64,000 bases of DNA, from IMG/VR virus record IMGVR_UViG_3300032291_003679, positions 1 to 64,000 of that record. One strand, 5' to 3'. The stretch comes from a virus. The position numbers and the translations under genes are program-made. Shown here piece by piece: positions 14,860 through 44,826 of the stretch (positions within the stretch are counted from its first letter, which is position 1; each line of letters starts with the position of its first letter). Under the pieces are notes generated by a model. The model was not told the DNA's origin. It saw only the letters and a program-made list of their open reading frames with translations, and ran no database searches.

Positions 14860-16422
14860 CTACTCACGCTCGGGGAGTGGTGTTCCCATGTGTTCGTACC
14901 ACACCTTACGGAACATGTGAGGGTACACGCTGTGCGCTTTGCCGTTCACTTTGAGGTTGTGCAACTGCGTAATGGCTTCCTCAATGTGAGGAACAACGAT
15001 GTAGCCGTGCTGTCGTGCGTAGGTCATGCACTGCATGGAAAGCAGTTCAGAGAATCCGTCATTTGCTCCACACACTCCACCGTCTGTTACCCATACGAGA
15101 GGTGTGTTCTTGTATTGACGATTCTTTACGCCCCACTCAATCGCAGGGAAGTCCACGCCGTTGCCGTGTCCGTAGTCAATGTATTCCACATTCTCAACCA
15201 TGCGTCCCTTGTCAGCAACTACCCAAGCGTTTGGGTGTTCTCCACCTGCTCGGTAACGGTCACTGTAAATCATCACGGTTGCGCCTTGTGCGTTCTCAAT
15301 GATTTCTGCAATCTGTTCAGTAGTGAATGACATAGAACCACTTGCGTCAATGATGACCATGCCACCACTGCCACGAACGGTCTTGTCAAAGACACGCTTC
15401 GCAGGGTCGGTCATGTAACGGTGCAATCGGCGTGGTCTGCGTCCCATGTTCGTAGCAATGCGCTTCTTGCCCATTGAGCCGTAGTGATAACGAGGCAGAG
15501 GCTCACGACTGACAACCAGTTCTGCCCACCCTGTCGCTCCACCGTGGTCGGCTGGAACTACTTTCCCATGTGGGTTTCCGTCCTTGTCGCCTTCGCTGTC
15601 TCCGTCCTGATACTCGGCAGAGTGTTCACCTGTCTTGTCACCGTCATCGGACTTACCTACACCTTCGCCTTCGCCATTTCCCTTCCCCTTCTTAGGGTCG
15701 TTCTTGCGAGCCTTCGGTGGTGGGAACGAGGCGAGCCTGTCCACCCATTCTGCTAAACGCTCGGTGTGAACGAATCCGTATGGAGCAATGCCGTCATGGG
15801 TGTCGGTGCTTGCGAGTGTGCGTGACTGGTGCGACTTGCGCATTTCCTTCATTGCTCGCTTGCCAATGTCCAGCAGTGCGTCACCCCATGCTCGGTTGTG
15901 CCTGCGTACTCCGTTCAGGAATGGCTTGTGTCCAGCCGTGCCGACTGTGGCGATACAGGTTGCAACTGCACCTGCCCAATCGTTTGACTTTGCTAGTTGT
16001 TCGCCTGCTGAAAGTTCGTTTCCGTCTGCGAGGTGATTCTTCACATCAAAGCCAGCCTGCTGACAGAGGTAGTTCACTCGTAGTTCCTCAACAACTGTCA
16101 TGGCAGTAGCAGAGGCAATAGAGCGACTAACAAACACTTCCATTTGCTCGGGCGAGGGTGACACTTTCGCATGCATCATTTCATGCGCACGAACTACACG
16201 CTCTAACTCACCGTCTGCTGACGGAGCGAACATGACACGGTTGGCAATGTCTGTACGAGGCTCGCCACGCACTGCACGACAGTCCTCAACGACCCAACGC
16301 TCATGGGCTAGGTCTTTGCGACCAAGCATGTTCGGTTCGGCACGGCTTGCGCCCCTCTCCACATCTGACAGTGGAGAGGGAAACGACTTACCTACACCTG
16401 ATTTGGTGGGGTTAGTGGACAT
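14860..16422 (-). CDS. HExxH metallopeptidase-like plus VWA domain protein (CobT/MoxR partner)
   Basis: HEMMH; DASGSM MIDAS motif; VTDG; adjacent AAA+ gene. Confidence 0.8.
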   Translation of the reverse strand: MSTNPTKSGVGKSFPSPLSDVERGASRAEPNMLGRKDLAHERWVVEDCRAVRGEPRTDIANRVMFAPSADGELERVVRAHEMMHAKVSPSPEQMEVFVSRSIASATAMTVVEELRVNYLCQQAGFDVKNHLADGNELSAGEQLAKSNDWAGAVATCIATVGTAGHKPFLNGVRRHNRAWGDALLDIGKRAMKEMRKSHQSRTLASTDTHDGIAPYGFVHTERLAEWVDRLASFPPPKARKNDPKKGKGNGEGEGVGKSDDGDKTGEHSAEYQDGDSEGDKDGNPHGKVVPADHGGATGWAELVVSREPLPRYHYGSMGKKRIATNMGRRPRRLHRYMTDPAKRVFDKTVRGSGGMVIIDASGSMSFTTEQIAEIIENAQGATVMIYSDRYRAGGEHPNAWVVADKGRMVENVEYIDYGHGNGVDFPAIEWGVKNRQYKNTPLVWVTDGGVCGANDGFSELLSMQCMTYARQHGYIVVPHIEEAITQLHNLKVNGKAHSVYPHMFRKVWYEHMGTPLPERE

Positions 16423-16424
16423 GG

Positions 16425-17147
16425 TTATTTCACTCCGTCCACTGCGAGAGCGTCAAGAATCTGCTTTGCACGATTTCCGAAAGTGAGTTGGCATGCTCGC
16501 TCCATTCCGACTGCCTTGCGCAACTTGTCCAACGCCATGAAAGCACGGAGAGAGATACGAGCCTCGCCACCGTCAGCCATGCGAACGGCGTATCCACGCA
16601 GGTCAGGAGAAAGACGGAGAAGTGCGTTTGGGTGTGGTTCGTTGATACGAACACGAATCGGGAAACGGTCAGCGAGTGCTGTTGGCAGTTCGCTCATGTT
16701 CTCAATGTTCGTGGTCATCACGGCAGAGAATCCGTCAAGTGGACGGACGATTTCACCAGTCTCGGGGTGTTGGAATGTTGCAGATTCAGGAGAATCCAAC
16801 ATGGCAAGAAGTGTTGCGAACACATCGCCACCAGCCTTGTCCACTTCATCAACAATAAGACGACCACCTGTTGTGCCGTTGCCTTTCCATGCTTTGAGAG
16901 CAGAGCCGTCAAGCCACTGGAAGCCACCGTCTTTGCTAGGCATGAAGCCACCAGTTACATCCATGTTGGTCATGTCCTCGGTGCAGACCAAGCGATGTGC
17001 GCCAGCCTCAATGTTTCCGAATGAAAGACCAGCGTAGGTCTTTCCTGTTCCAGCAGGTCCGAACAGAATGATTCTGTCAATACCCGAGTCAAGTGCGTCC
17101 TTGACATCTTGCCAGCACTGTGGCAATACCTCTTGTGTTGTGTCCAT
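16425..17147 (-). CDS. MoxR/CobS-type AAA+ ATPase
   Basis: GPAGTGKT, IVDEVD, ALADRF; start reassigned to MDTTQ after AAAGGAG. Confidence 0.88.
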   Translation of the reverse strand: MDTTQEVLPQCWQDVKDALDSGIDRIILFGPAGTGKTYAGLSFGNIEAGAHRLVCTEDMTNMDVTGGFMPSKDGGFQWLDGSALKAWKGNGTTGGRLIVDEVDKAGGDVFATLLAMLDSPESATFQHPETGEIVRPLDGFSAVMTTNIENMSELPTALADRFPIRVRINEPHPNALLRLSPDLRGYAVRMADGGEARISLRAFMALDKLRKAVGMERACQLTFGNRAKQILDALAVDGVK

Positions 17148-17484
17148 TGTTTGCTCCTTTGTAAGCGATTGGTTAGGGACAAGCAAACCATACCACTCGT
17201 GGGTCAGACTTCCCAACTTCACTTGACACCTTGCAACACAAGGGATTTGGACTTACCTACACCTATTGTTCTGACGATTCCGTGCCACTTACCTACACCT
17301 CTTATGTGTGGTCTGTGCGTTCCGAGCCACCTGCCGTGCGCCCCAACGCCGAGCCAGCCCTTACCTGCCCTGCCACCCCGAGTGCCTGCGCCTTCTTCGG
17401 GTGGAGCCCCGCGTTGTTCGGCGAGTCGGGCGGGGCTTAGGCCGACTTACCTACACCTAATGGGGACTTACCTACACCTAATGG

Positions 17485-17970
17485 TTACTCGTTGTCTTTG
17501 GGGTCTGAGATTCGCCACAGCCCCTTCTTGACCTTGATAAAAAGTGGAGATTCGCTCACATACTTCAGTGTTGTCTGGTACGAGAACCCAGCAACCTCAA
17601 CGAGCTGGTCGGTGGTGTATTCCTCACCTCGGTGTTCGTCTACCCACTTCTCAAAAGTTCCGTATTTATCTTTGCGTCTCTCGGTCTTGATGATTCCGTT
17701 ATTCGCAGTGCTGATGTGGGTAAGATACTTCTTGACGAACTCATTTATTACATCGTCACTGACGGAGTAAAAGCGAAGCATTGATACAGGGTTCCCATTG
17801 CACCCTTCCCTTTGCCACTTCTCCATGACATACAGCGCACGGACTGTCTCTGCAATGCGCCACATTTCCTGATGGTTGGCGTATTTCTGTTGTGGCTTCT
17901 TGTACTTCTTATCAAACTCGGCATACAACCGTGTGTTTTCTTCATGCACGAAATCAATAGTAAAGTTCAC
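17485..17970 (-). CDS. hypothetical protein with C-terminal HTH-like segment
   Basis: GTG start after AAGGA; YTTDQLVEVAGFSYQTTLKYV. Confidence 0.6.
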   Translation of the reverse strand: MNFTIDFVHEENTRLYAEFDKKYKKPQQKYANHQEMWRIAETVRALYVMEKWQREGCNGNPVSMLRFYSVSDDVINEFVKKYLTHISTANNGIIKTERRKDKYGTFEKWVDEHRGEEYTTDQLVEVAGFSYQTTLKYVSESPLFIKVKKGLWRISDPKDNE

Positions 17971-18321
17971 TTCTTTTTCCTTATTTAGATGTACCTGCAG
18001 CGCAACCCGTATGGACTCTAGCACTCGTCATCCAGACTTCCCCAAGTTGCAAATAAAAAATGAAAAACTGTGTTGCCAGTAAGCCCTATGGCTCGACTTC
18101 CACCACCGTCAAAGGGAAACCAACTAGAAAATCCTGCCGCCGGCTCGAGAACTGTTTTTCAAAAAATCAAAAAATCTGACACCCCTTAGTTGCTACGTAG
18201 CATTTTGACCGTTTCGTGCGGGGCTCCATCCCCCAAATGGCGAGGAAAAGAAAGAGGAGTGTCACTGCCAACTGAACAGCGACACCCCTCTTGGTGTAGG
18301 TAACTGAAAGGGGGGACTTAC

Positions 18322-18531
18322 CTACACCTGACCTATAACTACGAACTGGTCTCCTGCTTCCTCAACAAGACCGAGGTTGCTTCCGTTGTCCCATTTGACA
18401 AACACCGTTCCGATGTCGTCCACAAAGTCCACCGTCCCCTCTTCTCCTGATTTGAGTTTCGTGTAGGGGTCTGTGCATGTGATTAGCCTGACCCTCTTGC
18501 CGACTAGGTGTTCGTTTCTTGCTCGCCTCAT
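18322..18531 (-). CDS. DUF4314-like protein
   Basis: GKRVRLI..DPY..GTVDFVDDIGTVFVKWDNGSNLGLV. Confidence 0.8.
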   Translation of the reverse strand: MRRARNEHLVGKRVRLITCTDPYTKLKSGEEGTVDFVDDIGTVFVKWDNGSNLGLVEEAGDQFVVIGQV

Positions 18532-18674
18532 GCTGGAACCTCGCTTTCTGTATTGGTGCTGATTAGTAGGCGAATGTCTAAGAGCAGGTCGGTCATCTCT
18601 ACTGATGACACAATGTCCCTGCCCGAGCAGTGCGCTATTGCTTTATCCACTAGGGCGACAAGTTCAGTATCCAT
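18528..18674 (-). CDS. small hypothetical protein (48 aa, MDTELVALVDKAIAHC...)
   Basis: ATG directly after a 14-mer copy; ATGA coupling to the next gene. Confidence 0.55.
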   Translation of the reverse strand: MDTELVALVDKAIAHCSGRDIVSSVEMTDLLLDIRLLISTNTESEVPA

Positions 18675-18681
18675 GACTTAC

Positions 18682-19377
18682 CTACACCCCCTTGTCTTTC
18701 TTTTTCGGAGCCTTGTCAAGCATGTCTTTGTAAGCAAGCGTCTTGGTGGCAAGGTGCATGTAGCCAACCGTGGCAAGTAAAGCGTCAGGAATACGACCAT
18801 TTGTTTCATGCTCTTTGTCCACTGTGAATGTGTTGCACATTGGTTCTTCGTCAAACTCGGGAACTCCGTGGTCGTCATAGCGATAGAGGCTCGCAATGCT
18901 CCACACATTCGTAGCGTTCCAATCCACGGCAGTCATTATGATTCCTTCACGAACATCAGAAAATGGATTTTCTTTGTAGTCCTTCTCAAAGTCGCCTCTG
19001 TCGTGGTTATGTGCCTCTTCTTCGGTCATCTCTGACTTTGCGTATCCCTCAACGAGTAGAACAATAAAGTCAAACGGACGAATCGGGAGTGACTTCACAA
19101 CATCTTCGTAAGCGTCAAAAATGTCCTCTTTGTGAATGAGAGGAATCATCGCCAAGTGGTATGGCTTTGAGAGTGAGAACTCATGTTGGTAGTCCACGCA
19201 TGCTTCGTGGTCGGGATTACTGTCATTGCTCTCAACGGCAACAAGGAACAGTGGTGGACTGTCTTGCATTGGCTCGTCTTTGCACATTTCTGTCTTTGCA
19301 AAGACGGCTCGGTTGAGCAAATCTTCCATTATTGCTCTGATGTCGTTGTCAATAACTTCATTCTCTTGTGGTGTCAT
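18682..19377 (-). CDS. hypothetical protein
   Basis: GAAAGGGG RBS; own promoter; stop codon lies inside a 14-mer. Confidence 0.75.
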   Translation of the reverse strand: MTPQENEVIDNDIRAIMEDLLNRAVFAKTEMCKDEPMQDSPPLFLVAVESNDSNPDHEACVDYQHEFSLSKPYHLAMIPLIHKEDIFDAYEDVVKSLPIRPFDFIVLLVEGYAKSEMTEEEAHNHDRGDFEKDYKENPFSDVREGIIMTAVDWNATNVWSIASLYRYDDHGVPEFDEEPMCNTFTVDKEHETNGRIPDALLATVGYMHLATKTLAYKDMLDKAPKKKDKGV

Positions 19378-19499: not shown

Positions 19500-19724
19500 C
19501 TACTTCTCTCCGAGCAGTGTGTTCACCGATACTCCAAGAGCATTACTTACAGCGAGCAGTGTTTCCACACTCGGCGTGAACTGCCCATTCTCAATACGGT
19601 TCACCGTTTTTCGGTCAAGACCTGCACGGTTGGCAAGTTCCAACTGTGACCAGCCGTTCTCGCTTCTGTGAACTCGTACGATTTCTGAGATTTGCTCAAT
19701 GGATTTAGTTGATGATGTTCCCAT
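19500..19724 (-). CDS. XRE/Cro-C1 HTH transcription regulator
   Basis: WSQLELANRAGLDRKTVNRIENGQFTPSVETLLAVSNAL. Confidence 0.9.
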   Translation of the reverse strand: MGTSSTKSIEQISEIVRVHRSENGWSQLELANRAGLDRKTVNRIENGQFTPSVETLLAVSNALGVSVNTLLGEK

Positions 19725-20528: not shown

Positions 20529-20811
20529 TTGATTTTCCTTTCGGTTTGGTAGATACACAGAGCGTACCACCCTCGGGACAAACTTCCCCGAGTTACCTAC
20601 ACCTCTCTTCCACCACCGTCAAAGGGTTTAGTGGGGTGGGCTACCTGCTGCGCCCCCCGTCACGCGAGACCTCTTGCCCCCGACCCCGACTTGCCTGCCG
20701 AGCACCCCCAACTGCCTGCTCGTGCTGGAGCCCCGGCCGACTCGGAGCATGCGGGGCTTCTTGTCAAAGTATCCAATCGGATACTTTTTGTGCTGGAAAA
20801 GTTACCTACAC

Positions 20812-22093: not shown

Positions 22094-22460
22094 GATTTCC
22101 CTTTCGCATTGGCTTCGCCATCACAGTACCACACAGGGGACAGACTTCCCAAAGCACAGAGTTACCTACACCCACACGGTCTTCCACCACCGTCATTGTG
22201 TTGAGAGATACCTGCTGCGCCCACCCGTTGTTTTTTCATTTTTTTGTTTTTTCAGTTTTTTCGGGTTACCTGCTGCGCACCCCCACGCGTTCCAGCGACT
22301 GCTTCCCGAGGAAGCCCCGGCCCGATTCGTGGTCCGATTCGTAGCGGGGCTCCTACTCCAAAGCCCGACTCGGGAGTCACTTATCTAGCCGTGACCCGAG
22401 AGTTACCTACACCTATCCCCCCTCGCCCAACCGAGACGAGAGAGAACAGGTGTAGGTAAG

Positions 22461-22802
22461 TCAGAGCGTGAACTGACCACCTCGTTGCTCGTAACGCTGA
22501 ACGGCTGTTCCGACATGCTCGCAGTAGTCGCCGTCTGCCAGCGACCAGCCCTCGGGACGGTCATACGCAGTCCACACGGCGAAAGGGTGGAGAGAGTTGT
22601 GGGGCAGGTGGCACAGAACGAGCCACCAAGCGTAAGCGTCCACATCGCTGGAACGAACCAGCCAGCAAGCGAGAACGGTCACGGCATGCTCCATGCTCGT
22701 GGGCGTGATGACTTCGCCAGCACGGAGCATGCGCATGGGGTATGTGTCTGTCGGGGACTTACCTACACCTTCCACGGTCACTTCCCCTCTCCGTTGAGCC
22801 AT
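22461..22802 (-). CDS. hypothetical protein (true start probably near 22781)
   Basis: ORF track; contains GVGKS. Confidence 0.5.
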   Translation of the reverse strand: MAQRRGEVTVEGVGKSPTDTYPMRMLRAGEVITPTSMEHAVTVLACWLVRSSDVDAYAWWLVLCHLPHNSLHPFAVWTAYDRPEGWSLADGDYCEHVGTAVQRYEQRGGQFTL

Positions 22803-23227: not shown

Positions 23228-23558
23228 TGCTAACCCCTTTCAGGTTGTGTATTGGTGGCGACCACAGCGTACCACTAGTGGTTCAGACTTCCACCCGAGA
23301 CTTACCTACACCTGTTGCGCAGGCTTGCGAAACCTACCTGCCGAGCACACCCGTGTTCTCTCCTCCCCCCTGCTGGGGGTGGGAGCCCCGTCTGTGGTCG
23401 GGCATCGGGCGGGGCTTCTGCCCCCAACCCTCGCCCCTCGGTGGAGTTACCTACACCTAACCCAACGCCTGAACCCCCTTGCGCCTCTCGGACACTCGGG
23501 GGCTGATAGGTGTAGGTAAGTGGGGGAGACTTACCTACACCCTTTCAGGCTCGGTTGG

Positions 23559-23960: not shown

Positions 23961-24524
23961 TTGGACACCCTTTCAGTGGTAGATGAACGCCACACGCCGT
24001 GTTGCTTGTGGCTTGCCACAAGCATACACCCCCTCGGTCAGACTTTCCAACTTCGCTTGACGGACTTACCTACACCTAATCCGAGTTCCCCTTCCAGCCA
24101 GCACCTCTCGGATAGATTTACCTGCTATGCCCACCCGTGTTGCGCCCCCTTCCCTTTGGTCGGGTGGAGCCCCGCAGGTTTGTGGTCTAGGCCGGGGCTC
24201 CTGCCCCACAAGTGGTTCGGCAACACAGTCGGGGAAGCACGGCAGGTAATGGAGATTTATGTGTGGGATTACACGGGTCGGCTTGCTCGGATACGGCAAC
24301 TGACTGATGAGGCAAACAGGCTGACTGCTCTTGTTCGTGAAGCGAACGACAACACTCGTGCGAGCCTTCGCAGGGGGGAGTTCAGAGTTACCTACACCAC
24401 CTCTGCCGACCCTCTGCCTGAATAGGTGTAGGTAAGTCCAAGGACAAGAGAAAGGGGCTGACTCGCCTTCTTGGCAAGCCAGCCCCTCTCGGGTGAAGTC
24501 CCCTGTTGAGGTAGGGAAAGGGGA

Positions 24525-24968: not shown

Positions 24969-25056
24969 TGGTTTCCCTTTCGGTTGGAGTTGTAGGCACA
25001 CGAACAGTACCACTCGTGGTTCAGACTTCCGAGAGTTACCTACACCTAGATAGTAA

Positions 25057-25587: not shown

Positions 25588-25953
25588 TGGATACCCTTTC
25601 GGTTGGTTGTTAGTGGAACACCGTCAGCGTACCACGCTTAGTACAAACTTCCCGACTTACCTACACCTGTCAGGTCGCTTTCCACCACCGTCATTCATTT
25701 GAGGGGGTGTGCTGTTCCTCTCAAACGCCCTGACCTGCCTGCCGTACCCACCCGTGTTCCCACCCCGATAGTTGCGCTCGCAACCATCTTGGGCGTGGGA
25801 GCCCCGGCCTTTCCGAGCGTAGCGGGGCTCCTGCCCCGAAACCAGCCGAGTAGTGAATAGGTCGGGGACTTACCTACACCTCACATGAAAGGGGGGTGTG
25901 AGGTGTAGGTATCCCGAACGCCTAGCCCTGTGGGGTGGTGGGGCTAGGCGAGG

Positions 25954-26244
25954 CTAGGGGCGAGGCGAGGCTACGGGCAGGTGAATGGTCTGCCATGTGT
26001 CTAGGGTCGTGCCGTACATGTCCACGAGCGTGTCAATAACGGCAGACACCTCACCCGAACAATGACGGTGAGCAATGTCCCAGAACGTGTCTCCACTTTC
26101 CACATTCACGGTGAGGGTGTCGCACGAGAATGTCGGGGGCTTGACCGTCTGACGCAGACCCCACAGACCGACCCACAGTAGAGCGATGATGAGAGGCGTG
26201 AACACCACGAAACGGCGCACGGTGTACTTACCTACACCTCTCAT
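25954..26244 (-). CDS. membrane-anchored LysM-domain protein
   Basis: TM followed by VESGDTFWDIAHRH..TIHLP. Confidence 0.75.
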   Translation of the reverse strand: MRGVGKYTVRRFVVFTPLIIALLWVGLWGLRQTVKPPTFSCDTLTVNVESGDTFWDIAHRHCSGEVSAVIDTLVDMYGTTLDTWQTIHLPVASPRP

Positions 26245-26690
26245 GCCGTTACCTCTTTGAGTGCGATGCTCTCCCATGGGAAAGCGTTGTGATAGACCGT
26301 GACATCGTGACCATTCTCGGCTCGGTCAATGCGCCGAACTTCCAGCATTGTGTCGTGAATAATGTAAAGCCATTCAGCCCACGCTAGGTCTGTGTCGTTC
26401 TGGGTGAACAGGTCGCTGTCCTCTAATGTCACATCGGTGTGGGCGTATCCGTAGCCCTCTACTAATGCGTGTTGTTCATAGAGGTTAGGAACTCCACTCT
26501 TTGTGAGTGGCTCAATCTGTGACCATGACGGCGTATCGGTGATGAGGGTCTGAACGACCTTACCTACACCATCTCGGGCTACTAGTTCTCCCAAGACATA
26601 AACCATGCGCTCGGGATAGTTGTCCCAATGGGTGTAGCGACCTTCCCACCCTTCGTTAGTTGCTCTCGCAACTATTCCTCGTGTTGCCAT
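26241..26690 (-). CDS. conserved phage hypothetical protein
   Basis: MATRGIV..YTHWDNYPE motif; own promoter. Confidence 0.75.
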   Translation of the reverse strand: MATRGIVARATNEGWEGRYTHWDNYPERMVYVLGELVARDGVGKVVQTLITDTPSWSQIEPLTKSGVPNLYEQHALVEGYGYAHTDVTLEDSDLFTQNDTDLAWAEWLYIIHDTMLEVRRIDRAENGHDVTVYHNAFPWESIALKEVTA

Positions 26691-27102
26691 TGTTGTCCCC
26701 TTTCGGTTGGTGATGTAGTGGACACCTGAACTGTACCACCACACGGACAGACTTCCGACCCGACCTACCTGCCGAACCCACCCGTGTTGAGCCCCTGCCC
26801 TGCTTGTCCGTAGGGAGCCCCGTTGCTTTGCCGATTCGTAGCGGGGCTCCCACCCCCAAGCCGACCCCTCGGTGAACGGGTTGGCTCGGCAGGTAGCTCA
26901 AACATTCTGCTATTCCCTTTGTTCCTGTTTGTGAGGAGAGAATAACGGAGTTGTCTGTGTCGCCTCTCGCCTCATTCTGTGTCGCCTCTCGCCTCATTAG
27001 GTGTAGGTAAGTCTCGGGGGCAGTCTGCTGACAACAACATACCTACACCCAATAGGTCATCCCATTAGGTGTAGGTAAGTCTCGGGGCAGGGGCAGAGAG
27101 GG

Positions 27103-27366: not shown

Positions 27367-27446
27367 GTCATTACCGTACCACGCTAGGTACAGACTTCCA
27401 AACAGAGTTACCTACACCCAATCGGACTTACCTACACCCAATCGGG

Positions 27447-27860
27447 CTAGCCGTAGATGAGCGTTCCGAATACGGCGAACTGAATAATCACATCGCCTGC
27501 CTCTGCGTCAATGTCAAGGTCGCAATCGCCATCGCTGTAGTAATCAAAGCCGATGTCCTGTTTCTGCGCAGAACACGCCGAGATGTATCCGTTGTAGATG
27601 TCCTGCACCGTGAGAACACGATGAACAAGGTCAGAGTCATCATCGCCATCAGGGTCAATGACTGCAACTTTCAGGAAAGGCTGGTCATCGCTGTCGGGAA
27701 TGTTGTTGTAATCCACGCCGACCCACCAATCGTATGACTCCCACACGGAGTCAATGATTGCCGAGATGAACTCCGTGCGCTCAATGAGCGTTTCAGGCTT
27801 CACGGTTGGATAGTTGCGCTCAACCAATGTGGTTGAGTCAAGTGGGGTGAGTTCGGACAT
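27447..27860 (-). CDS. conserved phage hypothetical protein
   Basis: DAEAGDVIIQFAVFGTLIYG C-terminus; GAAAGG RBS. Confidence 0.7.
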   Translation of the reverse strand: MSELTPLDSTTLVERNYPTVKPETLIERTEFISAIIDSVWESYDWWVGVDYNNIPDSDDQPFLKVAVIDPDGDDDSDLVHRVLTVQDIYNGYISACSAQKQDIGFDYYSDGDCDLDIDAEAGDVIIQFAVFGTLIYG

Positions 27861-28247
27861 TGTGTGCCTGCCTTTCGGTTGGTGGTTGCTGGCGACACCA
27901 ATGTACCACGACAGGGTCAGACTTCCCACTCGGACTTACCTACACCTGTTGGGGACAACCGAGCGAAGCGAGAGCGTCAGACACCCCCGACCTACCTGCC
28001 GAACTCCCCCGTGTTACGCCCACGAGGGGTTGGGCGTGGGAGCCCCGGTTGATTTGCGAAGTGCAACGGGGCTCCTCCCCCACGCAGGCTTTGCGCTGTG
28101 AACGGGTTGGCTCGGCAGGTAGCGCACAAGTTTATTATTTTGTTCGTTCCTTTTTGTGGGGGGCAATACGACTCGCCTACACCCAACAGGTCTCCCCGTT
28201 AGGTGTAGGTAAGTCAGAGCGCAAGTTGTCGGGAGAGTTACCTACAC

Positions 28248-29285: not shown

Positions 29286-29594
29286 TTATTCGGACTCGCA
29301 ACGCCCACACAAGTAGTCAGCACCCCAAGCGTCACCAATGTAAGTGCCGTGCTTGCAGTAGAGACTCGCTTGGTATTCAGCCTCTCGTGCTTCACGAGCC
29401 TCGTAACGCTCGTAGTAAGCGTCATAGTGCTTCTCACAGCGTGGGAACACAACGAACGCACCTGAACGGCGATAACGCACAGGCAGAGTCATGTGATACT
29501 CCACAACGCCCTCACAAGGGCTGTCCTCGTGGTGGTGGTCTAAGCAGTCCTCGTGCGTGAGTTCTACTGTTTCTTCTTCGTGGTCAATGCTCAT
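29286..29594 (-). CDS. Cys/His-rich hypothetical protein
   Basis: ATGA coupling; 14-mer before the ATG. Confidence 0.65.
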   Translation of the reverse strand: MSIDHEEETVELTHEDCLDHHHEDSPCEGVVEYHMTLPVRYRRSGAFVVFPRCEKHYDAYYERYEAREAREAEYQASLYCKHGTYIGDAWGADYLCGRCESE

Positions 29595-31826: not shown

Positions 31827-32120
31827 GACTTCCCCTTTCAGTAGGAACACCCAAACAATACCAGCACAGGTACAGGCTTCCCGATAGAGACTTACCTACA
31901 CCTGATGCGACTTACCTACACCTCTCGGACTTACCTACACCTAATCCGTCAGCAGGCGAACGAACAACAGCGTCAGCGTCAGCACGACCTACCTGCCGAC
32001 CCCACCCGTGTCGCGCCCCCTTCTGGGGGTTTGGGGGTGGGAGCCCCGAGGAAATCGGCGAAGTGCAACGGGGCTCCTCTTTCCAGCGCTGTCCCCACCC
32101 TCGCATGGTCGGGGACTTAC

Positions 32121-32788: not shown

Positions 32789-33059
32789 TGGTGTGTCCCC
32801 TTTGTTGTTGGTGGGCTGCTGCCCACAAGCAATGTACCACGCACGGTTCAGACTTCCGAGGGTTACCTGCCGTTCTCCCCCGTTTCCGTGCCGTGTGCCG
32901 AGCAGGGGAGCCCCGTCGGTTGTCGCCGACTTTCGCGGGGCTCCTGCCCCCAGCGAGAACCTCTGGCACGGGTGGGTTCGGCAGGTAAGTGTGGAAGCCT
33001 GCCCCACGAGTGGTATCGTTTGGCAGGCCAACAAGGGCCGTACCTGAAAGGGGTATCCA

Positions 33060-33680
33060 ATGAAAGTAATAGAAGTAAGCGCACGAAAGGGTGGGGTCGG
33101 CACAAGCACTGTGGCCGTATCGCTCGCCGTTGCTCTCTCGCAGGCCAAGCCCAAGAGCGTTCTGTTGGTGGACACTTCACCAAACTCGGACACATGGGCT
33201 ATCGCAGGAGCCTCTACTCCTGTCGGCCCAAAGAAGTCCAGCACCACGCTCGGAGAGCATGAACTCTTGCTCATCAAGACAGGTGGCAACACTCTCGCCA
33301 CCTTGGAACACGATGACCTGTTCTCATTTGACTTCGTCGTTATTGACGCAGGCCTTTCACCAGCCTCTCACTACTTCGGCGAGACACCATTCCGTGTGTC
33401 CGTCGTGAACAACTCGTATCTCTCGCTTCGTGCGCAGGCGTTCACAGGTGGCCTCTACGCCGATGGGATTGTGTGCGTTCATAACGACGGCTTCGTTCTG
33501 AATGAGAAAGATGTCAAGAGTGTTCTCGGTGGTCGTTTCGTTCACTACTTCGGAGTGGACAACGCTGTTGCTCGTGCGATTGACGCAGGCCTCTACGCCA
33601 CATCACGCACCAACCTGTTCGCAGATTGGACAGGCTCGTTCATACAGTTTCACGAACTCGTAGAGCCTTCCAAAGTCTGA
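33060..33680 (+). CDS. ParA/MinD/CpaE-like ATPase with degenerate Walker A
   Basis: KGGVGTST, VLLVD, DFVVIDAG. Confidence 0.8.
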   Translation: MKVIEVSARKGGVGTSTVAVSLAVALSQAKPKSVLLVDTSPNSDTWAIAGASTPVGPKKSSTTLGEHELLLIKTGGNTLATLEHDDLFSFDFVVIDAGLSPASHYFGETPFRVSVVNNSYLSLRAQAFTGGLYADGIVCVHNDGFVLNEKDVKSVLGGRFVHYFGVDNAVARAIDAGLYATSRTNLFADWTGSFIQFHELVEPSKV

Positions 33681-34189: not shown

Positions 34190-34375
34190 ATGAACGAGCC
34201 AATCAATCACACAGAAACAGACTGGGACGCCATTCTCGCAGAAGAGGCTCTCGCCGAACAGGCGTTTGAGGAACTTGCTGCTTTCGGAGAAGGCGCGACA
34301 ATCGTGAATGTTCTGACTGGCGAGCGCTGGACAGCAGGGAAGCGTCAGCGTCCAACAACAAGAAAGAAGGCATGA
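34190..34375 (+). CDS. small hypothetical protein
   Basis: GAAAGGG RBS; own promoter. Confidence 0.65.
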   Translation: MNEPINHTETDWDAILAEEALAEQAFEELAAFGEGATIVNVLTGERWTAGKRQRPTTRKKA

Positions 34376-34728
34376 GAGAAATGAGCGAAGCACTCACTAA
34401 CTACTGGAACGACGTAGAGGAGGCAGTCAAGGGCTCACGCCTCATCGCGTGGGACACCTGCCACAAAATCTACATCGCGATGGACGAAGAGCAGGTTGAC
34501 TGGTTCAGCGAACACTACGCCCCCAACACGTTCACGGGGACAGCGAACGAAATGCTCGCAACGCTTCGTCAGTGGTACAGCGACTCGTGCCCACTGAAGT
34601 TCATCTCAGCCGTGACCACGAACCACGAAGACCCGAACGCAGGATTTGAGAGCCTCATTCCTCAGGGTGCTGAATGGGAAGATGAAGAAGACGAAGACGA
34701 AGACGACTACGAAGACGAAGAGGTGTAG
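34372..34728 (+). CDS. hypothetical protein with acidic tail
   Basis: WDTCHKIY; stop lies inside a 14-mer. Confidence 0.7.
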   Translation: MREMSEALTNYWNDVEEAVKGSRLIAWDTCHKIYIAMDEEQVDWFSEHYAPNTFTGTANEMLATLRQWYSDSCPLKFISAVTTNHEDPNAGFESLIPQGAEWEDEEDEDEDDYEDEEV

Positions 34729-34735
34729 GTAACTC

Positions 34736-35074
34736 ATGGCGACCGAAACAACACCCGATGAGTTCGCCCTCATGGACTCACGCAATGCGTTCGCGTGGAA
34801 CCTGCTGACCGAACTGCGCGAGCGTTCCACGAACCCCGAGGTCGTGGAGGCTTCCGAGATTCTGCTCGCGAACATCACCGACCCGACCGACTACGCCGTC
34901 ATCGTGTGGGCGAATGAGGACGACCTCTGTTCGTTTGACGAGACCGAGTGGGGAACGGACGAGAACGGTTATTGGAGCGACTGCTACGAGACCCCTCTCG
35001 TGTGGTGCGACCGACAGGACGAGCACTCGCTCATCGTCTGGTACTCAGCGAAGTACGGAGAGACAGAGGTGTAG
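34736..35074 (+). CDS. highly acidic hypothetical protein
   Basis: Start and stop both in or next to 14-mers. Confidence 0.65.
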   Translation: MATETTPDEFALMDSRNAFAWNLLTELRERSTNPEVVEASEILLANITDPTDYAVIVWANEDDLCSFDETEWGTDENGYWSDCYETPLVWCDRQDEHSLIVWYSAKYGETEV

Positions 35075-35802: not shown

Positions 35803-36126
35803 ATGGCAACACCAAAGAAGAAACCAGTCGTAAAGAAAGCTCCGGCCAAGAAAAAGCCTGCAGCCAAGAAAGCCGTAGCGAAGAAGACCCCAGCGAAGAA
35901 GACCCCAGCAAAGAAAGCTCCTGCCAAGAAGACTGCAGCCAAGAAGGCATCGCCGGCAAAGAAGGGCACGCTCCCTCGTAAGAGCGCAAAGACAACCACA
36001 AGTGCTGCAACTGCTACTTCCACGACTTCTGTCACTTCACGTGTGAAGATTATCCCCATCACCAAGACCAGCGTTACCTCCACTGTTTCGGGTGCGAAGG
36101 TTACCTACAAGGTTAAGAAAAAGTGA
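35803..36126 (+). CDS. histone H1-like / HupB-tail-like Lys-Ala-Pro DNA-binding protein
   Basis: PAKK repeats; AAGGAG RBS. Confidence 0.75.
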   Translation: MATPKKKPVVKKAPAKKKPAAKKAVAKKTPAKKTPAKKAPAKKTAAKKASPAKKGTLPRKSAKTTTSAATATSTTSVTSRVKIIPITKTSVTSTVSGAKVTYKVKKK

Positions 36127-37070: not shown

Positions 37071-37254
37071 TGTTTCTCTCCTGTGTCTAGGTACATGAGG
37101 AATAATAGCCCCACTTATGGAATCTTGCAACAGTTTGCTGCAGCAGGTCATTATGTGACTAGTATGTGCCTAGGACCGGTGGGGCTCGCGCAACCTCTCT
37201 CCTTTCGGTACATCCCCAGTGCGAGCCTCGCCGGTTTCTACTATTCTAGAAACA

Positions 37255-39171
37255 ATGAGGTTGTACCTAGATAAGAATGAGATAGTGCTGGACTTTCCCT
37301 ACGACCAGCATCAGGTTTCCGAACTGAAGCAGATTCGTGGAGCACGGTGGGATAAGCAGACGAAGTTGTGGCGTGTACCTATTACGTCTCTTGCAGAGGC
37401 ACGTGAGTTTGCTATCAAACATGAGTTCGACGTAACAATCGACGTACTTACATTCAGTGCCCCCAAGCCACGCACCGGCACAGCGAAGGTGTACCTCGAT
37501 GAAGACATGATTGCTGTTCGTGTTCCGTACGAACGCGTCATAGTAAAAGCAGTGAAACAGATTCCGGCAGTGTCGTGGAATGCGAAGAAACATTATTGGC
37601 AGGCACCAGCGTCATCTGTTCTCAATGTAATGGAGTGGGCAGAGAAGTTCGAAGTACCCGTAGAGCCCGAAGTATCTGCGATGTCGAGCGAAGTTACTGC
37701 ACGCATGAATCAGTTCATTGAGGCATCACGCTCAACAGAGGCAGAGATAGAGATACCTACACTCCAAGGAGAACTGCTGCCATACCAGCGCGCAGGTGTT
37801 GCCTACGCATCGAGTGCCAAGCGCACATTCATTGCTGACGACATGGGATTAGGCAAGACGCTGCAATCAATAGCAACGCTCGAATACGTGTGGGATTCGT
37901 ATCCTGCTGTTGTCGTGTGTCCTCCAAGTCTTGTACTCAACTGGGTAGCAGAATGGAATCGATGGCTTCCGAACAGAAGAATCGCTCACGTGACGAACCG
38001 AAAGGATTTCCCTGAACGTGGTTCGTATGACGTCGTCATTGTTGGATACAGCAACATTGCTCATTGGGAGAAGAGACTCGCCGGCCATCGTGCTTACATC
38101 TTCGACGAGAGCCACTATGCGAAGACTCCAACTGCACAGCGCACAAAGGCAGCAGTGAAGATGGCAAAGTCTGCGCACAAAGATGGAATAGTTTTGTGCC
38201 TCACTGGAACACCCGTGACTAACCGACCAAACGAATACGCATCACAGTTAGAGATTCTCGGTCGTCTCAAAGACTTCGGAGGACTATGGGGTTTTTATCG
38301 TCGTTATTGTGCTGCGTATCAAGACAACTTTGGACAATGGAACATCAGTGGCAACTCACATCTCGATGAACTAAACGAAAGACTGCGTGGCACGTGTTAC
38401 ATACGTCGAACAAAAGACCAAGTTCTATCAGAGTTGCCACCCGTAATACATAGTCGTGTTCTTGTCGAAGGAAGCTCGACAACGATGAAAGAATACGTCA
38501 AAGCAGAGAAGGACATTCTTCTTTACATCGCAGAGAGAGCACGTCAACTCGCTCTCGAACAAGGAAAGCCATCGTATGGAGCAGCGATTGCAGCGATGAT
38601 TCGTGCAGAAGCAAATGAGCATCTTGTACGACTATCAGTACTGCGCAAAATTGCAGCAAAAGCAAAAATGGAAGTAGCAGAGGAATGGATAAATGCGCGT
38701 ATCGAGAATGGTAAGAAAGTCGTTGTCGCTGCTCACCACCGTGACATCGTTGATGAACTCGCTCGTAAATACGGCAATCTTCGAATTCAGGGTGGCATGT
38801 CGGTCGAAGAGGTGGAAGAGAATAAGCGTCGCTTTCAGACCGAGAGCGTGGAAAGCGCACCTGTCATTGTTCTTTCGATTCAGGCTGCAAAAACGGGACA
38901 CACACTAACAGCAGCAGAGGAATGTCTATTCTTGGAACTTCCGTGGACGCCTGCTGATGTTGACCAAACTTATAGTCGGCTCCATCGTCTTGGACAAAAA
39001 GGCAGCGTAACGGCGACTTACATGTTGACGTCAGGAACGATTGATGAGGAAATCTATGAAATCATCGAAGCAAAGCGTTCTGTTGTAGACGCAGCAGTCG
39101 AAGGTGGAAGTGTAGGTAACTCTGACTTGTCTACAAAGATGATTATGAGTCTGCTCGACAAACTTGCTTAG
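37255..39171 (+). CDS. SNF2-family helicase with N-terminal HARP-like repeats (SMARCAL1-like)
   Basis: DDMGLGKT, DESH, LTGTP, QTYSRLHRLGQ; two W..W HARP-like repeats; leaderless. Confidence 0.9.
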   Translation: MRLYLDKNEIVLDFPYDQHQVSELKQIRGARWDKQTKLWRVPITSLAEAREFAIKHEFDVTIDVLTFSAPKPRTGTAKVYLDEDMIAVRVPYERVIVKAVKQIPAVSWNAKKHYWQAPASSVLNVMEWAEKFEVPVEPEVSAMSSEVTARMNQFIEASRSTEAEIEIPTLQGELLPYQRAGVAYASSAKRTFIADDMGLGKTLQSIATLEYVWDSYPAVVVCPPSLVLNWVAEWNRWLPNRRIAHVTNRKDFPERGSYDVVIVGYSNIAHWEKRLAGHRAYIFDESHYAKTPTAQRTKAAVKMAKSAHKDGIVLCLTGTPVTNRPNEYASQLEILGRLKDFGGLWGFYRRYCAAYQDNFGQWNISGNSHLDELNERLRGTCYIRRTKDQVLSELPPVIHSRVLVEGSSTTMKEYVKAEKDILLYIAERARQLALEQGKPSYGAAIAAMIRAEANEHLVRLSVLRKIAAKAKMEVAEEWINARIENGKKVVVAAHHRDIVDELARKYGNLRIQGGMSVEEVEENKRRFQTESVESAPVIVLSIQAAKTGHTLTAAEECLFLELPWTPADVDQTYSRLHRLGQKGSVTATYMLTSGTIDEEIYEIIEAKRSVVDAAVEGGSVGNSDLSTKMIMSLLDKLA

Positions 39172-41418: not shown

Positions 41419-41450
41419 CCCGAAGAGGTGTAGGTAACCCAAGACGGACA

Positions 41451-41672: not shown

Positions 41673-42881
41673 ATGACCGAAGTTTCATCTGCCTCAATCG
41701 CCTTTGACCTGCACACGCGATACTTGGAATATCGCAAGAGCCACCCAACGATGGACAGGCTCTTACATCTCGGATACTTTCGCGCCATGTGGGCAGACGA
41801 CGATACGCCTATTCTGACCCGTGAGGCATTAGAGAGCGAAGCAAAAATGGGCGCAGTTCATCACGAAGTACATCGCGCACTAGACGACACAATCATCGCA
41901 CTCGGTGACACCGTGTTTCTCACTGACGACTTGCGTGAGTTGGTCAAGACGGCAGAAGTAACAATGCCTGATGAGGTGTTATTTGAGACGGACATTTTCA
42001 CCCCGTGTGGATTCATCGTGATGGAGACTCCACTGCCACAAACGGTGAAGTCGCTTATCAAGGCCGAAGATTTTGACGAAGTGCTAACACTCTCAAAAAA
42101 GTACGGCGCAATCATCACTGGAACGCGCAACGACACTGAACCTGACGAAGATGGAAACTATGTAGGCGTAGAGAACTGGGAAGTGCAGGCGTTTGCATGG
42201 GCTGACGCGAGCGCAATAACACCCGAAGCACTTTCGGAAATAGAGAGACGGTTTGGGAAAGACAGCAACGAGTACGCCTTCGCTCAAAACATTTCTAAGA
42301 ACTCAGGAAATGACAGTGCCATTCAGGTGCGTGTTTTCGGAACTCTTATCTCTACCACTGTCAATGGGCTAACGATAGAAGTTCCACAACTACACCTTGC
42401 CCCTTTACGACTAATGGATATGTACGCGTTCTTCTACGGCGAAGATGGAATGGAAATAGAACGCGAAGTAAGTGGTGTAGGTAACTTTTCAGAGGCCGAC
42501 CTGAACGAGTCCTCATGGGAACGAAGCAGAGAAGTGCGCCGATTTCTTGTTGCTCTGTTCCGTCTCATGGACGAGTATGTGGACATTGACAGGCACGGCC
42601 TGCATCGCGCTTTCGGAAAGCGAGCAACCCGTGGTGGCCGAACAGGTGACACGAAGAATGTCACGATTCTCTCACTGCGTCGTGCGCTCGGTGATGATGA
42701 AGAAGGAATCGGTGCAGGAGCGAAGGTGACGCTCGCGCATCTCGTCCGTGGCCACTGGCGCAATCAGTGGTATCCATCACAGAAGATGCACCGTGCGAAA
42801 TGGATACGCGCACACCGTCGTGGTGGCAGTGCTGGTGATGAAGTGACTGCACGGCCTCGCATCATCAAGGTGGACAGATAG
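41673..42881 (+). CDS. conserved phage protein with C-terminal VRGHWR motif, leaderless
   Basis: HLVRGHWRNQWYPS..WIRAHRRG; ATG 6 nt after TACATT. Confidence 0.8.
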   Translation: MTEVSSASIAFDLHTRYLEYRKSHPTMDRLLHLGYFRAMWADDDTPILTREALESEAKMGAVHHEVHRALDDTIIALGDTVFLTDDLRELVKTAEVTMPDEVLFETDIFTPCGFIVMETPLPQTVKSLIKAEDFDEVLTLSKKYGAIITGTRNDTEPDEDGNYVGVENWEVQAFAWADASAITPEALSEIERRFGKDSNEYAFAQNISKNSGNDSAIQVRVFGTLISTTVNGLTIEVPQLHLAPLRLMDMYAFFYGEDGMEIEREVSGVGNFSEADLNESSWERSREVRRFLVALFRLMDEYVDIDRHGLHRAFGKRATRGGRTGDTKNVTILSLRRALGDDEEGIGAGAKVTLAHLVRGHWRNQWYPSQKMHRAKWIRAHRRGGSAGDEVTARPRIIKVDR

Positions 42882-42947
42882 AACCTGTGGACTTACCTAC
42901 ACCCGTAGCAGGCTCGCTATCAGGTGTAGGTAAGTCCGTTGGCCGTA

Positions 42948-43139: not shown

Positions 43140-43378
43140 GATGAACCCCTTTCGTTCGGCAACACACACAGAGTACCACCGATGGAACAGACTTTCCAAA
43201 AGTGCATGATTACCTACACCTATTCGGCGCAACACTCGCACTCTATGCGAGGACAACCGAACGAAGTGAGGGCGTCAGCACCGGGGCTCCCACTCTCCAA
43301 CCATGCATAAGCACCGTGCCGAGACTTACCTACACCTAGTAGATGAGTGCCGACACGGTGAATACGCCGTGTACCGAA

Positions 43379-44083
43379 TCAGTATGCGTGTGGCGCGTCT
43401 ACTTCCATAGGTGCACGACACACATGACAGAGTGGGGACTCTGAACCGTCCTCACCGAATAGAGGTGTTTCGTCATCAGCGAGCGAGTACCCATGAGACT
43501 GCGAAAGCATTTCACCGTAGTTGCATTCCACTGAATGTTCTTCATCGTTCGGGCAAGTGAGCGAGTAGTTTGCGTTGTCGTATGGGAACGACTCTGCCAT
43601 GTCTACCGTGACACGGAATGCACGAGGACGCGTGTAGCCACCACGAACATCGCAACCCCCGTGAATCTGCAAGAGCACGAACACTTCACCACCGTCCGAG
43701 AATGTCACGCCCTGCAATGTCTGCGCGAGTGAGTCCTCTCCGTTGTATGTGTTCCATGTGTGTGCACTGTCGTCCTTTTCTGTTGCGAACTCTTGTGCGA
43801 GACCGAGCCACCCGTCATCAGGGTTCTCTTCACAGAACGCACGGAACTGCTTGTCCAAGAGTGGTGCATACTCCAATCGTTCTGAAAGGTAGTGATAGAC
43901 CGAGAGCGTCACGCCCCACTTGTCTGCCCATGCGCGAGGTTGCGCGTCCCACTCTGCGAGTGTGCGACCTGCGTTCTGTTCCCAGTGTCTCCCGTAGGCT
44001 CCACCACTGTCCAAGATGTGTCGTCCCGTAGGCTCCGTGAGCATTTCTGCGATTACTTCGCGTGTGCGTGTTGTTGTCTTCAT
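43379..44083 (-). CDS. conserved phage hypothetical protein
   Basis: HILDSGGAYGRHW; HGGCDVRGGYT. Confidence 0.75.
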   Translation of the reverse strand: MKTTTRTREVIAEMLTEPTGRHILDSGGAYGRHWEQNAGRTLAEWDAQPRAWADKWGVTLSVYHYLSERLEYAPLLDKQFRAFCEENPDDGWLGLAQEFATEKDDSAHTWNTYNGEDSLAQTLQGVTFSDGGEVFVLLQIHGGCDVRGGYTRPRAFRVTVDMAESFPYDNANYSLTCPNDEEHSVECNYGEMLSQSHGYSLADDETPLFGEDGSESPLCHVCRAPMEVDAPHAY

Positions 44084-44397
44084 GACTTACCTACACCCTT
44101 GTAAGGGTATGACGGGTGTGCCCGTCGCCCCTTGTGGCGAAGTGTGGCGATTTCGTTGCGTGACCACAGCGTGAGAAGTGTGCTGACAATCGTGCCAACA
44201 ATGGTGACGAACAATCCTGCGAAAGTATCGTACGCAGTGTGACTCCAATAAGAGAGAACAACAAGGTACGCACCAAGCGTGGTCACGAGATACGAAGCCC
44301 CCGTGATGAATCGGTAGATGAATGTTGGATAGTTGTCGTCCAACCAGTTAGTAGCCCGTGCGTCTGCTCGGTCTAGTTTGTCAATAATGTTTGCCAT
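44080..44397 (-). CDS. 2-TM membrane protein
   Basis: Start MANIID after GAAAGGG; ends GVGKS. Confidence 0.65.
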   Translation of the reverse strand: MANIIDKLDRADARATNWLDDNYPTFIYRFITGASYLVTTLGAYLVVLSYWSHTAYDTFAGLFVTIVGTIVSTLLTLWSRNEIATLRHKGRRAHPSYPYKGVGKS

Positions 44398-44568
44398 GTG
44401 GATTCCCTTTCCGTTTGAGTTGGCAAGATGAGCGTACCACAGTGGGGACAGACTTTCCGACCTACCTGCCGTGCCTCCCCGATGTGGCGAGGGGTGGGAT
44501 ACTTCCCCTGCTGGGAGCCCCGTTGTTTTTGACTCTTCTGTCATAACAGACACGAGTCGGTGACTTAC

Positions 44569-44826
44569 CTACACCTCGTCATCACCACGCAGGTAGTTGG
44601 CACGCATCACTTCCGTGCTGGCCTCACCTGTTTGGTCAAGCGTCGTGATGTCGTACACAGCACCACAGCGATAACACAGGTACGAAAAACCGTCCCATGC
44701 ACCCGTGGCGTCGGGGGCGATTATCTCTCCTGTTGGGAGACACGAGTAGAAGCCGTCGATGTCAGGTTCATTACCACATTCACAGACGAGCCAGTCTGCT
44801 GTAGTGCGTTCGAGATTGAGTGTCAT
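44569..44826 (-). CDS. small Zn-binding protein
   Basis: CECGN..CYRCG; stop lies inside a 14-mer. Confidence 0.7.
   Translation of the reverse strand: MTLNLERTTADWLVCECGNEPDIDGFYSCLPTGEIIAPDATGAWDGFSYLCYRCGAVYDITTLDQTGEASTEVMRANYLRGDDEV

Follow-up and report, generated by a model that had tools for sequence, protein, structure and literature searches.

The window analyzed in this study is the first 64 kb (64,000 nucleotides) of the IMG/VR virus record IMGVR_UViG_3300032291_003679, a complete genome from an uncultured phage that measures 158,021 bp and has direct repeats at its ends. It contains a repeated 14-mer word, GACTTACCTACACC on the plus strand and GGTGTAGGTAAGTC in the coding-strand form, which occurs 77 times at two or fewer mismatches, versus 0.28 expected from shuffled sequences. 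In the whole genome, all genuine copies of the word fall between positions 11764 and 46519, that is, about 77 copies in a single 32-kb block, or one per 430 bp, and 125 kb of the genome is free of it. The GC content of the block is 52-57%, compared with approximately 45% in the rest of the genome. The gene set was built from coding potential, conservation of orthologs, and positions of promoters and ribosome-binding sites. The block contains about 60 small accessory genes, mostly of unknown function and individually promoted, among which the SNF2 helicase, DUF932, AAA_5 ATPase, and ParA-like ATPase genes are recognizable. The extended consensus of the word is a-GGTGTAGGTAA-g/c-T-c, with position 12 being G in 67% and C in 28%. 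The only two-mismatch matches outside the block are the Walker A codons of two ATPases, at genome positions 70644-70657 and 105660-105673, outside the window (GVGKT, GGGKS); the Walker A motif of ParA (GGVGTS) is written with codons different from those of the 14-mer. No near-identical relatives were found in phage and plasmid collections, and a scan of IMG/VR with the bare 14-mer yielded single chance matches only.

Read in the sense direction, the word has a sole open frame, GGT GTA GGT AAG TC, which encodes GVGKS. The other two are closed by TAG (G GTG TAG) and TAA (GG TGT AGG TAA), as an earlier note on this DNA had stated, and all three frames of the reverse complement are open. The same note reported GVGKS-like peptides at in-frame copies in unrelated proteins, and all of its positions, about eleven copies, were confirmed. 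The in-frame sense copies start at 16385 and 15650 (both in a protein of 520 amino acids), 21387, 22756, 26225, 26557, 14331, 29595, and 44084, and variant peptides are encoded at 31411 (RVGKSC), 39109 (SVGNS), and 42474 (GVGNF). Most of them are placed in tails, first codons, or linkers, where they cost the proteins little.

The 520-amino acid protein (gene 14860-16422) was used for retrieval and has more than 80 relatives in IMG/VR, with identity ranging from 87% down to 32%. Five lineages were distinguished, each with its own version of the word: GGTGTAGGTAAGTC in lineage A (the window, L121, and L131), GAGTAGATAAGTC in lineage B (L122 and L123), AGAGTAGATAACT in lineage C (L124-L130 and L135), AGGTAGATAAGTC in lineage D (L132-L134), and CTAATAGATAACT in lineage E (L136-L140). 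The core TAG-R-TAA-S-T is invariant across lineages A-E, and therefore the same two frames stay closed in all of them. In each of three complete relatives, its own variant occurs 40-98 times, nearly always within a single block of 30-40 kb. Gene order is conserved across the lineages, and copies stand at the same junctions though the word differs. Retrieval of further loci guided by ParA yielded lineage C only.

The peptides encoded by in-frame copies follow the local version of the word. The 520-amino acid protein has two in-frame copies of its own word in every lineage, one in the N-terminal tail and one in an acidic linker, with the peptides GVGKS in lineage A, GVDKS, VDKS, or VDNS in lineages B-D, and IDNS in lineage E; distant orthologs have neither the tail nor the peptide. 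In the window, the first copy (16385-16398, minus strand) encodes GVGKS at codons 9-13, and lineages B-E have their own word 8 codons downstream (VDKS, VDNS, or IDNS). The second (15650-15663, minus strand) falls at codon 254, in the acidic inter-domain linker, where lineages B and C have GVDKS and lineage E has IDNS. The C-terminal tail of the SNF2 helicase (37219-39171) contains SVGNS (39109-39122, plus strand), which is replaced by EVDNS in the complete relative G002, encoded by GAA GTA GAT AAC TC, and by EMVAD in the complete relative G003, where the word is absent. In gene 26241-26744, GVGKV (26557-26570, minus strand) corresponds to GVDKV in G002 and to GRVNV, again with no word, in G003. 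The start of the protein encoded by 25954-26277, MRGVGKY (26225-26238, minus strand), is MRVDKF in G002 and MRVDKY in G003. Codon 12 of gene 22461-22802 begins GVGKS (22756-22769, minus strand), which becomes GVDKS in G002 and SVDKS in G003; the PTDTYPM that follows varies only at synonymous sites, hence this N-terminal stretch is translated. Gene 14075-14431 has GVGKSY (14331-14344, minus strand), with GVDKSL in G002, and the tail of gene 44080 likewise tracks the lineage word. The 402-amino acid protein encoded by 41673-42881 has GVGNF at codon 268 (42474-42487, plus strand). Its orthologs carry their own word elsewhere, at about codon 303/316 (VGKS in G001, VDKS in G002); the window protein has lost the copy at that site and gained another. 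Finally, RVGKSC lies at codon 143 (31411-31424, minus strand) of the 396-amino acid protein encoded by 30660-31850, a gene with no homolog in five complete relatives.

Thus, in-frame sites carry their own lineage's word in orthologs of the five lineages, and at none of the nine sites tested, in eight genes, did homologs keep the same peptide with varied codons and no DNA word. Instead, orthologs without the word have unrelated residues at those sites, such as EMVAD and GRVNV in G003. The proposal of the earlier note that the DNA word is kept at the cost of protein sequence is therefore upheld: the unit under selection is the DNA word and not the peptide. Two of its protein labels fared less well. 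The VWA assignment of the 520-amino acid protein has no Pfam support at E <= 0.01, and the LysM assignment of 25954-26277 corresponds to a weak match only (E = 0.04).

The word is strongly structured with respect to genes. Of 76 copies, 58 are co-oriented with the local gene (P = 5e-6), also where genes lie on the minority strand (35.2-35.6 kb and 43-46 kb); among the 18 copies in the opposite orientation, 13 are partners in inverted pairs. Although the block is 79% coding, only 16 of 75 copies lie wholly inside coding sequences, versus 59 expected (P = 6e-26), and the other 59 do not. Antisense copies inside genes number only three, degenerate or at gene edges, despite the antisense strand being open in all three frames. 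TAG accounts for 43% of stop codons in the block versus 23% outside it (P = 0.011). All gene ends previously reported to use a TAG in or abutting the word (11771, 14860, 18322, 18682, 20812, 21125, 28248, 32121, 34728, 35074, and 44569) were confirmed, and a further one was found at 30048, for a total of 12-14 genes. An ATG directly after base 14 of the word, also reported earlier, was confirmed at 18674, 29594, 34736, and 44083 and is probable at 21385, giving four to six genes in all.

Several junctions illustrate this placement. A copy at 14847-14860 (minus strand) abuts the TAG stop of the 520-amino acid protein gene, and the same junction holds a copy in L124, L132, and L140. The copy at 18675-18688 (minus strand), kept in L124 and L140, supplies the TAG that ends 18682-19377 and is followed after base 14 by the ATG of 18528-18674. 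On the plus strand, the copy at 34722-34735 similarly contains the TAG ending 34372-34728 and precedes the ATG of 34736-35074. Two minus-strand copies combine a coding and a junction position: 29595-29608 encodes the tail (SVGNS) of 29591-29791 and abuts the ATG of 29286-29594, and 44084-44097 encodes the C-terminal tail (GVGKS) of 44080-44553 and is followed by the ATG of 43379-44083.

Some copies are grouped in arrays. Four co-oriented copies (17250, 17286, 17444, and 17465) occupy 17250-17478 on the minus strand, upstream of the promoter of the operon encoding the AAA_5 ATPase and the 520-amino acid protein, and this place is taken by two to four copies in lineages C, D, and E. At 31889-31941 (minus strand), upstream of the promoter at 31881, three copies stand in tandem at intervals of 19-20 bp. 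Inverted pairs of the word form potential hairpins with stems of 13-16 bp and energies of -17 to -34 kcal/mol. Examples are the pairs at 18293-18328 (-16.7 kcal/mol as RNA), 23509-23541 (14-bp stem, -21.9 kcal/mol), and 42890-42936, between convergent genes (-33.7 kcal/mol). The first of them is followed by an ordinary terminator-like hairpin at 18292-18252; a role of the word as an intrinsic terminator was ruled out, since ordinary terminator hairpins stand beside it.

The distances between copies are random to clustered, and the regular spacing along the DNA suggested by the earlier note was not found. The coefficient of variation (CV) of the gaps is 1.09, versus 0.98 for random placement, and the largest gap, 2528 bp versus about 2130 bp expected, is within chance. 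Gaps of 80 bp or less are in excess (22 versus 12.4, P = 0.0016); when clusters are merged, the CV is 0.73, equal to that of a hard-core random null model (P = 0.51). Long genes had also been said to carry internal copies. Such copies do exist, but genes of at least 230 codons contain one inner copy per 2.3 kb, versus one per 0.43 kb for the block, that is, they are depleted about five-fold.

The other recurrent element of the block is a promoter module. The box GGAAGTCTG-N9-TGGTAYNNT occurs 23 times in the block, at 17.2-45.3 kb (17213-45336). It is of the extended -10 type (TGnTANNNT) with a noncanonical box in the -35 region and contains the dyad ACC-N6-GGT. A GAAAGG ribosome-binding site and the ATG follow 20-40 nt downstream; the ribosome-binding site is thus separate, and this function was ruled out for the word itself. 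The block has fewer canonical sigma-70 promoters than expected (4 versus 9.2). A copy or near-copy of the word is located 1-36 nt upstream of 22 of the 23 boxes: the 14-mer stands 1-10 nt upstream of 13 boxes and 36 nt upstream of a fourteenth, and eight or nine others are preceded by the near-copy CGGCAGGTAAGTC. In the standard module at 25008-25046 (minus strand), for instance, the 14-mer (25033-25046) is separated by 2 nt from the box starting at 25030. A divergent promoter pair at 32835-33015 has boxes starting at 32857 (minus) and 32993 (plus), each preceded by the near-motif CGGCAGGTAA(G/C)nn. In G002, the elements upstream of the boxes contain the full lineage B word; in G003, word and box overlap (GGTAGATAAGTCTG-N9-TGGTA). 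The box is invariant in lineages A-C, and lineage D retains its AAGTCTG core; the word alone varies.

To explain these observations, we suggest that a regulator encoded by the phage, which binds DNA sequence-specifically, docks at the asymmetric 14-mer and controls the 32-kb accessory block, a reading to which we give an even chance. The genes of the block would probably have early or anti-defense functions. Copies and near-copies upstream of the -35-like box at essentially every promoter (overlapping it in lineage D) would be in the position of operators. At some 50 further copies, co-oriented with transcription and located at gene ends, gene starts, and a few permissive intragenic spots, the bound protein would block or attenuate the elongating RNA polymerase in one direction, similar to the stoperators of mycobacteriophage L5, and the inverted partners would do the same in the other direction. 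The site would be needed at junctions even where genes abut, and, having TAG and TAA in two sense frames, it could be recruited as a stop, abut starts, and be readable in coding sequences only as G-V-G-K-S. If, between lineages, the reader came to recognize TAGGTAA in place of TAGATAA, along with a different 5' flank, all sites would have changed together, forcing parallel D-to-G replacements in unrelated proteins. The concerted change of the word between lineages points to a reader that is phage-specific and operator-like. This reader would be a protein, and it would act by repression or road-blocking rather than by activation.

In Cluster A mycobacteriophages such as L5, asymmetric 13-bp sites at promoters and in short intergenic spaces are oriented with transcription, and the motifs co-vary with the repressor between phages (PMC9283540, PMC6550527). 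This network of operators and stoperators, with the repressors of L5 (gp71), Bxb1, and TipsytheTRex, is the closest published system, and by analogy with it the word studied here is best read as stoperator-like. The anatomical features of Cluster A sites were all found: dozens (more than 20) of copies of an asymmetric word of 13-14 bp, location at promoters and in short intergenic spaces, one prevailing orientation relative to transcription, and a consensus that differs between related phages, which in Cluster A co-varies with the reader. The setting is also similar, probably that of an actinobacterial phage, as a WhiB gene is present here. Different from stoperators are the density of the sites, with about three times more copies; their restriction to one 32-kb block of a 158-kb genome; the tandem arrays and hairpin-forming inverted pairs; the invariant TAG-R-TAA core closing two frames; and the extent to which the word is written into genes, many copies being stop codons or in frame. 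The promoters differ as well, being of the unusual GGAAGTCTG/extended -10 type.

Two other repeated phage words are comparable in part. The SPBRE of the Bacillus prophage SPbeta is a 15-bp word in promoter and intergenic regions of a phage of about 130 kb, read by one phage repressor, MrpR; according to passages of PMC10516654, there are only about 10 sites, all at promoters. These passages do not mention in-frame or stop-codon copies, and MrpR has a tyrosine-recombinase fold, for which the PF00589 search of our genome was negative. The SAS/ESAS of Cluster K mycobacteriophages, 13 bp long and asymmetric, occurs in a single orientation and only in the non-structural half of the genome; inverted repeats accompany some copies, and its function is not known (PMC3203893). 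It resembles the 14-mer in asymmetry, orientation, restriction to one part of the genome, and the occasional inverted repeats. However, the SAS includes the ribosome-binding core AGGAG and precedes start codons by 3-7 bp (PMC3203893), whereas only 4-6 of 76 copies of the 14-mer abut a start, and the GAAAGG ribosome-binding site is separate from it.

Several points weigh against a stoperator-like regulator. No homolog of L5 gp71, the monomeric repressor with a helix-turn-helix (HTH) and a "stoperator" domain, was found among all open reading frames of four complete genomes (phmmer E > 0.6, tblastn E > 0.5). The genome has no match to the tyrosine integrase family (PF00589), and the ParA-like gene is the sole hint of a lysogenic state. 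The density of one site per 430 bp, the tandem arrays, and the hairpin-forming pairs exceed anything described for stoperators, and with a distance to the box that varies over 1-10 nt, the word is not an especially good match to a classical operator or to a classical activator site. Given the invariant TAG-R-TAA core, selection could be acting on the stop codons themselves, whereas pure DNA docking needs none. Finally, no reader was identified: three HTH proteins scored by Pfam have recognition helices that are invariant between lineages, and in the best candidate, described below, lineages A-D share one identical helix despite the different 5' halves of their words.

The association with promoters could alternatively mean that the word is a positive element, the upstream half of a phage promoter read by an activator or by the RNA polymerase as modified by the sigma-4-like HA-HTH protein, with orphan copies being weak, cryptic, or decayed promoters or factor sinks. 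The copies and near-copies at 22 of 23 boxes and the scarcity of canonical sigma-70 promoters agree with this, as does lineage D, where the core TAGATA takes exactly the place of the -35 hexamer, 18 nt from TAYNNT. Moreover, the 3' end of the word, AAGTC, recurs in the box GGAAGTCTG, and the repeated word of the distant relative L159 is a canonical promoter, TTGAGA-N17-TAnnnT. We nevertheless find a positive element doubtful, as about 50 of the 77 copies have neither a box nor a -10 element downstream, and several stand directly before an ATG or deep within genes. In lineage A, the word stands anywhere from 1 to 10 nt or more from the box, and inverted partners and arrays of three or four copies are not expected for an activator site. 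The genome has no match to Sigma70_r2, and a search for a T7-type RNA polymerase was negative too but carries no weight, as it matched none of the control genomes either.

Punctuation at the RNA level is another possibility, somewhat less likely in our judgment. Here the word in the transcript would be the target of a sequence-specific RNA-binding protein, an endoribonuclease, or an antisense RNA, through which the cistrons of the block would be processed, destabilized, or uncoupled in translation. Comparable systems are RegB and RegA of T4 and the RNase III sites of the T7 early mRNA. Such a role would account for the co-orientation with transcription, the location at cistron boundaries, on stops and before starts, the TAG-R-TAA core closing two frames in all five lineages, and the stability of the inverted pairs as RNA hairpins (-17 to -34 kcal/mol). 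However, copies and near-copies upstream of the divergent promoters at 32.86-32.99 kb and 35.61 kb lie in non-transcribed DNA and would have no RNA form; since the DNA at 32.86-32.99 kb is transcribed from neither flanking promoter, a reading at the DNA level is favored. The commonest variant of the word, the G/C transversion at position 12, would break RNA-RNA pairing. No complementary copy that might act as a trans RNA exists outside the block in the whole genome, and an Rfam search yielded only tRNAs.

We consider it unlikely that the word together with the promoter module serves in cassette exchange, as a short homology or recombinase site for swapping, inverting, and losing accessory genes, similar to the PeSL promoter-terminator modules of T4-type phages or to integron attC sites. 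PeSLs are longer composite modules of a promoter and a stem-loop, read by the host sigma-70. The block is indeed hypervariable, as exemplified by the 396-amino acid protein gene absent from five complete relatives, and 29% of homology breakpoints between G000 and G002 fall within 25 bp of a copy, versus 10% of random positions. This association is confounded, because breakpoints and copies both occur at gene boundaries, and it is absent in comparisons with G001 (13%) and G003 (6%). A cassette of one promoter and its gene (27376-27943 in the window) stands at another place and in inverted orientation in G002 (118042-118624), with both ends 3-22 bp from copies. The precedent of PeSLs, a repeated regulatory module that flanks small accessory genes of hyperplastic regions and onto which mosaic junctions tend to fall, is relevant here (PMC2839356, PMC4122927); the titles and abstracts of these papers mention neither in-frame copies nor a lineage-specific concerted change of a short word. 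But homology-driven swapping needs no conserved orientation relative to transcription, no concerted change of the word, and no in-frame copies at the same codon over more than 40% protein divergence, and the same PF00589 search found no tyrosine recombinase.

The view of the earlier note, that the word resembles uptake sequences or KOPS, guiding DNA translocation at regular intervals, rather than operators, is highly improbable: high copy number, strand polarity, and tolerance of copies in coding DNA are in line with it, but genome-wide, even coverage and a polarity that obeys an axis of replication, packaging, translocation, or uptake are not found for a word that is confined to one block and absent from 125 kb, follows the polarity of the local gene, is spaced at random or in clusters, is five-fold depleted in long genes, and is associated with promoters.

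Returning to a regulator bound to DNA, its gene could be 17485-17952 (minus strand), which encodes a conserved protein of about 155 amino acids with a predicted N-terminal helical domain and C-terminal winged helix. The gene is syntenic in nearly all relatives. The AlphaFold2 (AF2) model of the protein has a pLDDT of 87.8, and a structure search with it retrieved generic winged-helix folds only (Z 5-7). Its promoter, GGGAAGTCTG-N9-TGCTAGAGT (18012-18041, minus strand), is the only box in the block that has an AT-rich tract upstream instead of the 14-mer. A degenerate copy of the word is found in the 5' untranslated region of the gene, and in lineages C-E the word stands between the promoter and the ATG of its ortholog. 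The case for this protein as the reader is circumstantial, and its N-terminal domain would at best read the variable half of the site.

Other proteins were considered as the variable reader and rejected. The recognition helix is invariant across lineages in the HTH_3 (Cro/C1-type) protein 19500-19724 (minus strand) and in the protein 13574-13957 (plus strand) at the left edge of the block, which combines an HA domain with an HTH similar to sigma-70 region 4 and may read the invariant boxes. It is also unchanged in the TrmB/MarR-like winged-helix protein 4227-4676; the motif-like site at 4677-4690, before the start of this gene, is identical in G002 despite the different word of that genome and does not belong to the system. 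An 87-amino acid winged-helix protein of G002 has no counterpart in other genomes, and no conserved ParB-like gene that could be a partner follows ParA. Ranking of genes by identity to G001, which has the same word, versus G002, which has a different one, yielded no clear candidate, mosaicism being dominant. No protein was found whose DNA-reading residues co-vary with the five syntenic variants of the word. A family search for DnaA domain IV gave no match in the genome, and a PDB sequence search with four other conserved proteins of the block retrieved nothing.

The five lineages, with conserved gene order and near-complete genomes, provide a ready system for studying the joint change of specificity in a regulator and about 80 sites, an open question in the evolution of phage immunity. 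The locus is also an exceptionally clear natural example of protein sequence yielding to a non-coding DNA signal: matching amino acid changes, the same G/D replacement, are seen in at least seven unrelated proteins, because the regulatory word beneath them changed. A block of about 60 genes under common control is a likely reservoir of early or anti-defense functions in large phages, probably those of actinobacteria. Annotators of such blocks should regard GVGKS-like peptides and TAG stops as signal-driven and not as P-loops or conserved motifs. As a more speculative and rather improbable extension, the word could be a gene-junction code that unites an operator, a directional transcription insulator, a two-frame translational stop, and a cassette boundary, with a fast-evolving specificity factor. 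Each phage lineage would then keep a private regulatory "dialect", any change of which would rewrite about 80 sites and the overlapping proteins in concert, and phages would possess an integron-like, self-insulating cassette system.

The host is probably a Gram-positive actinobacterium, as judged from gene content. A WhiB-family transcription factor (7921-8271, plus strand; Pfam E = 8e-15), together with distant relatives of the 520-amino acid protein in metagenome-assembled genomes of freshwater Actinomycetota, makes an actinobacterial host likely, and the same factor with an LPXTG/Big_1 protein (1485-3002) and an Rpf-like transglycosylase (48063-49277) indicates a Gram-positive one.

The ParA-like ATPase (33060-33680, plus strand; 206 amino acids) is located at the divergent center of the block and is 46% and 34% identical to its orthologs in G002 and G003, compared with about 60-95% and 45-85% for most of the conserved genes; it may hint at a plasmid-like state. 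A Lys/Ala-rich basic protein similar to histone H1/HC2 is encoded in the block both in the window (35803-36126, plus strand) and in G003 (53801-54193), and may be a general DNA-coating protein. In the distant relative L181 (685-3825), clusters of two to five DnaA boxes, TGTGGA(T/C)AA, in both orientations, are found upstream of each promoter, where the window has the 14-mer. In lineages A-E, the words differ from this box by two mismatches, which is estimated to be within chance, and a connection with DnaA boxes was retained as a lead only.

GC-rich terminator-like hairpins (24450-24490 and, on the minus strand, 18252-18292) close many cassettes upstream of the module formed by the word and the promoter. 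Hairpins of the GGGGCTCC type are found upstream of near-motif promoters, and the element CGGGGCTCC recurs in G000, G001, G002, and G003. A third box, GACGGTGG(T/C)GGAA, stands about 20-70 nt upstream of some promoters (for example, at 20620-20632, 22189-22201, 25684-25696, and 18100-18113). It is the most widely shared of the repeats, even among distant relatives, and may be the target of the invariant HA/sigma-4-like HTH protein. Five tRNA genes, all on the minus strand, were identified by Rfam at 8413-8484, 53465-53537, 54390-54468, 54676-54749, and 55136-55210, and one of them explains the short matches to Legionella and Acinetobacter in the plasmid database.

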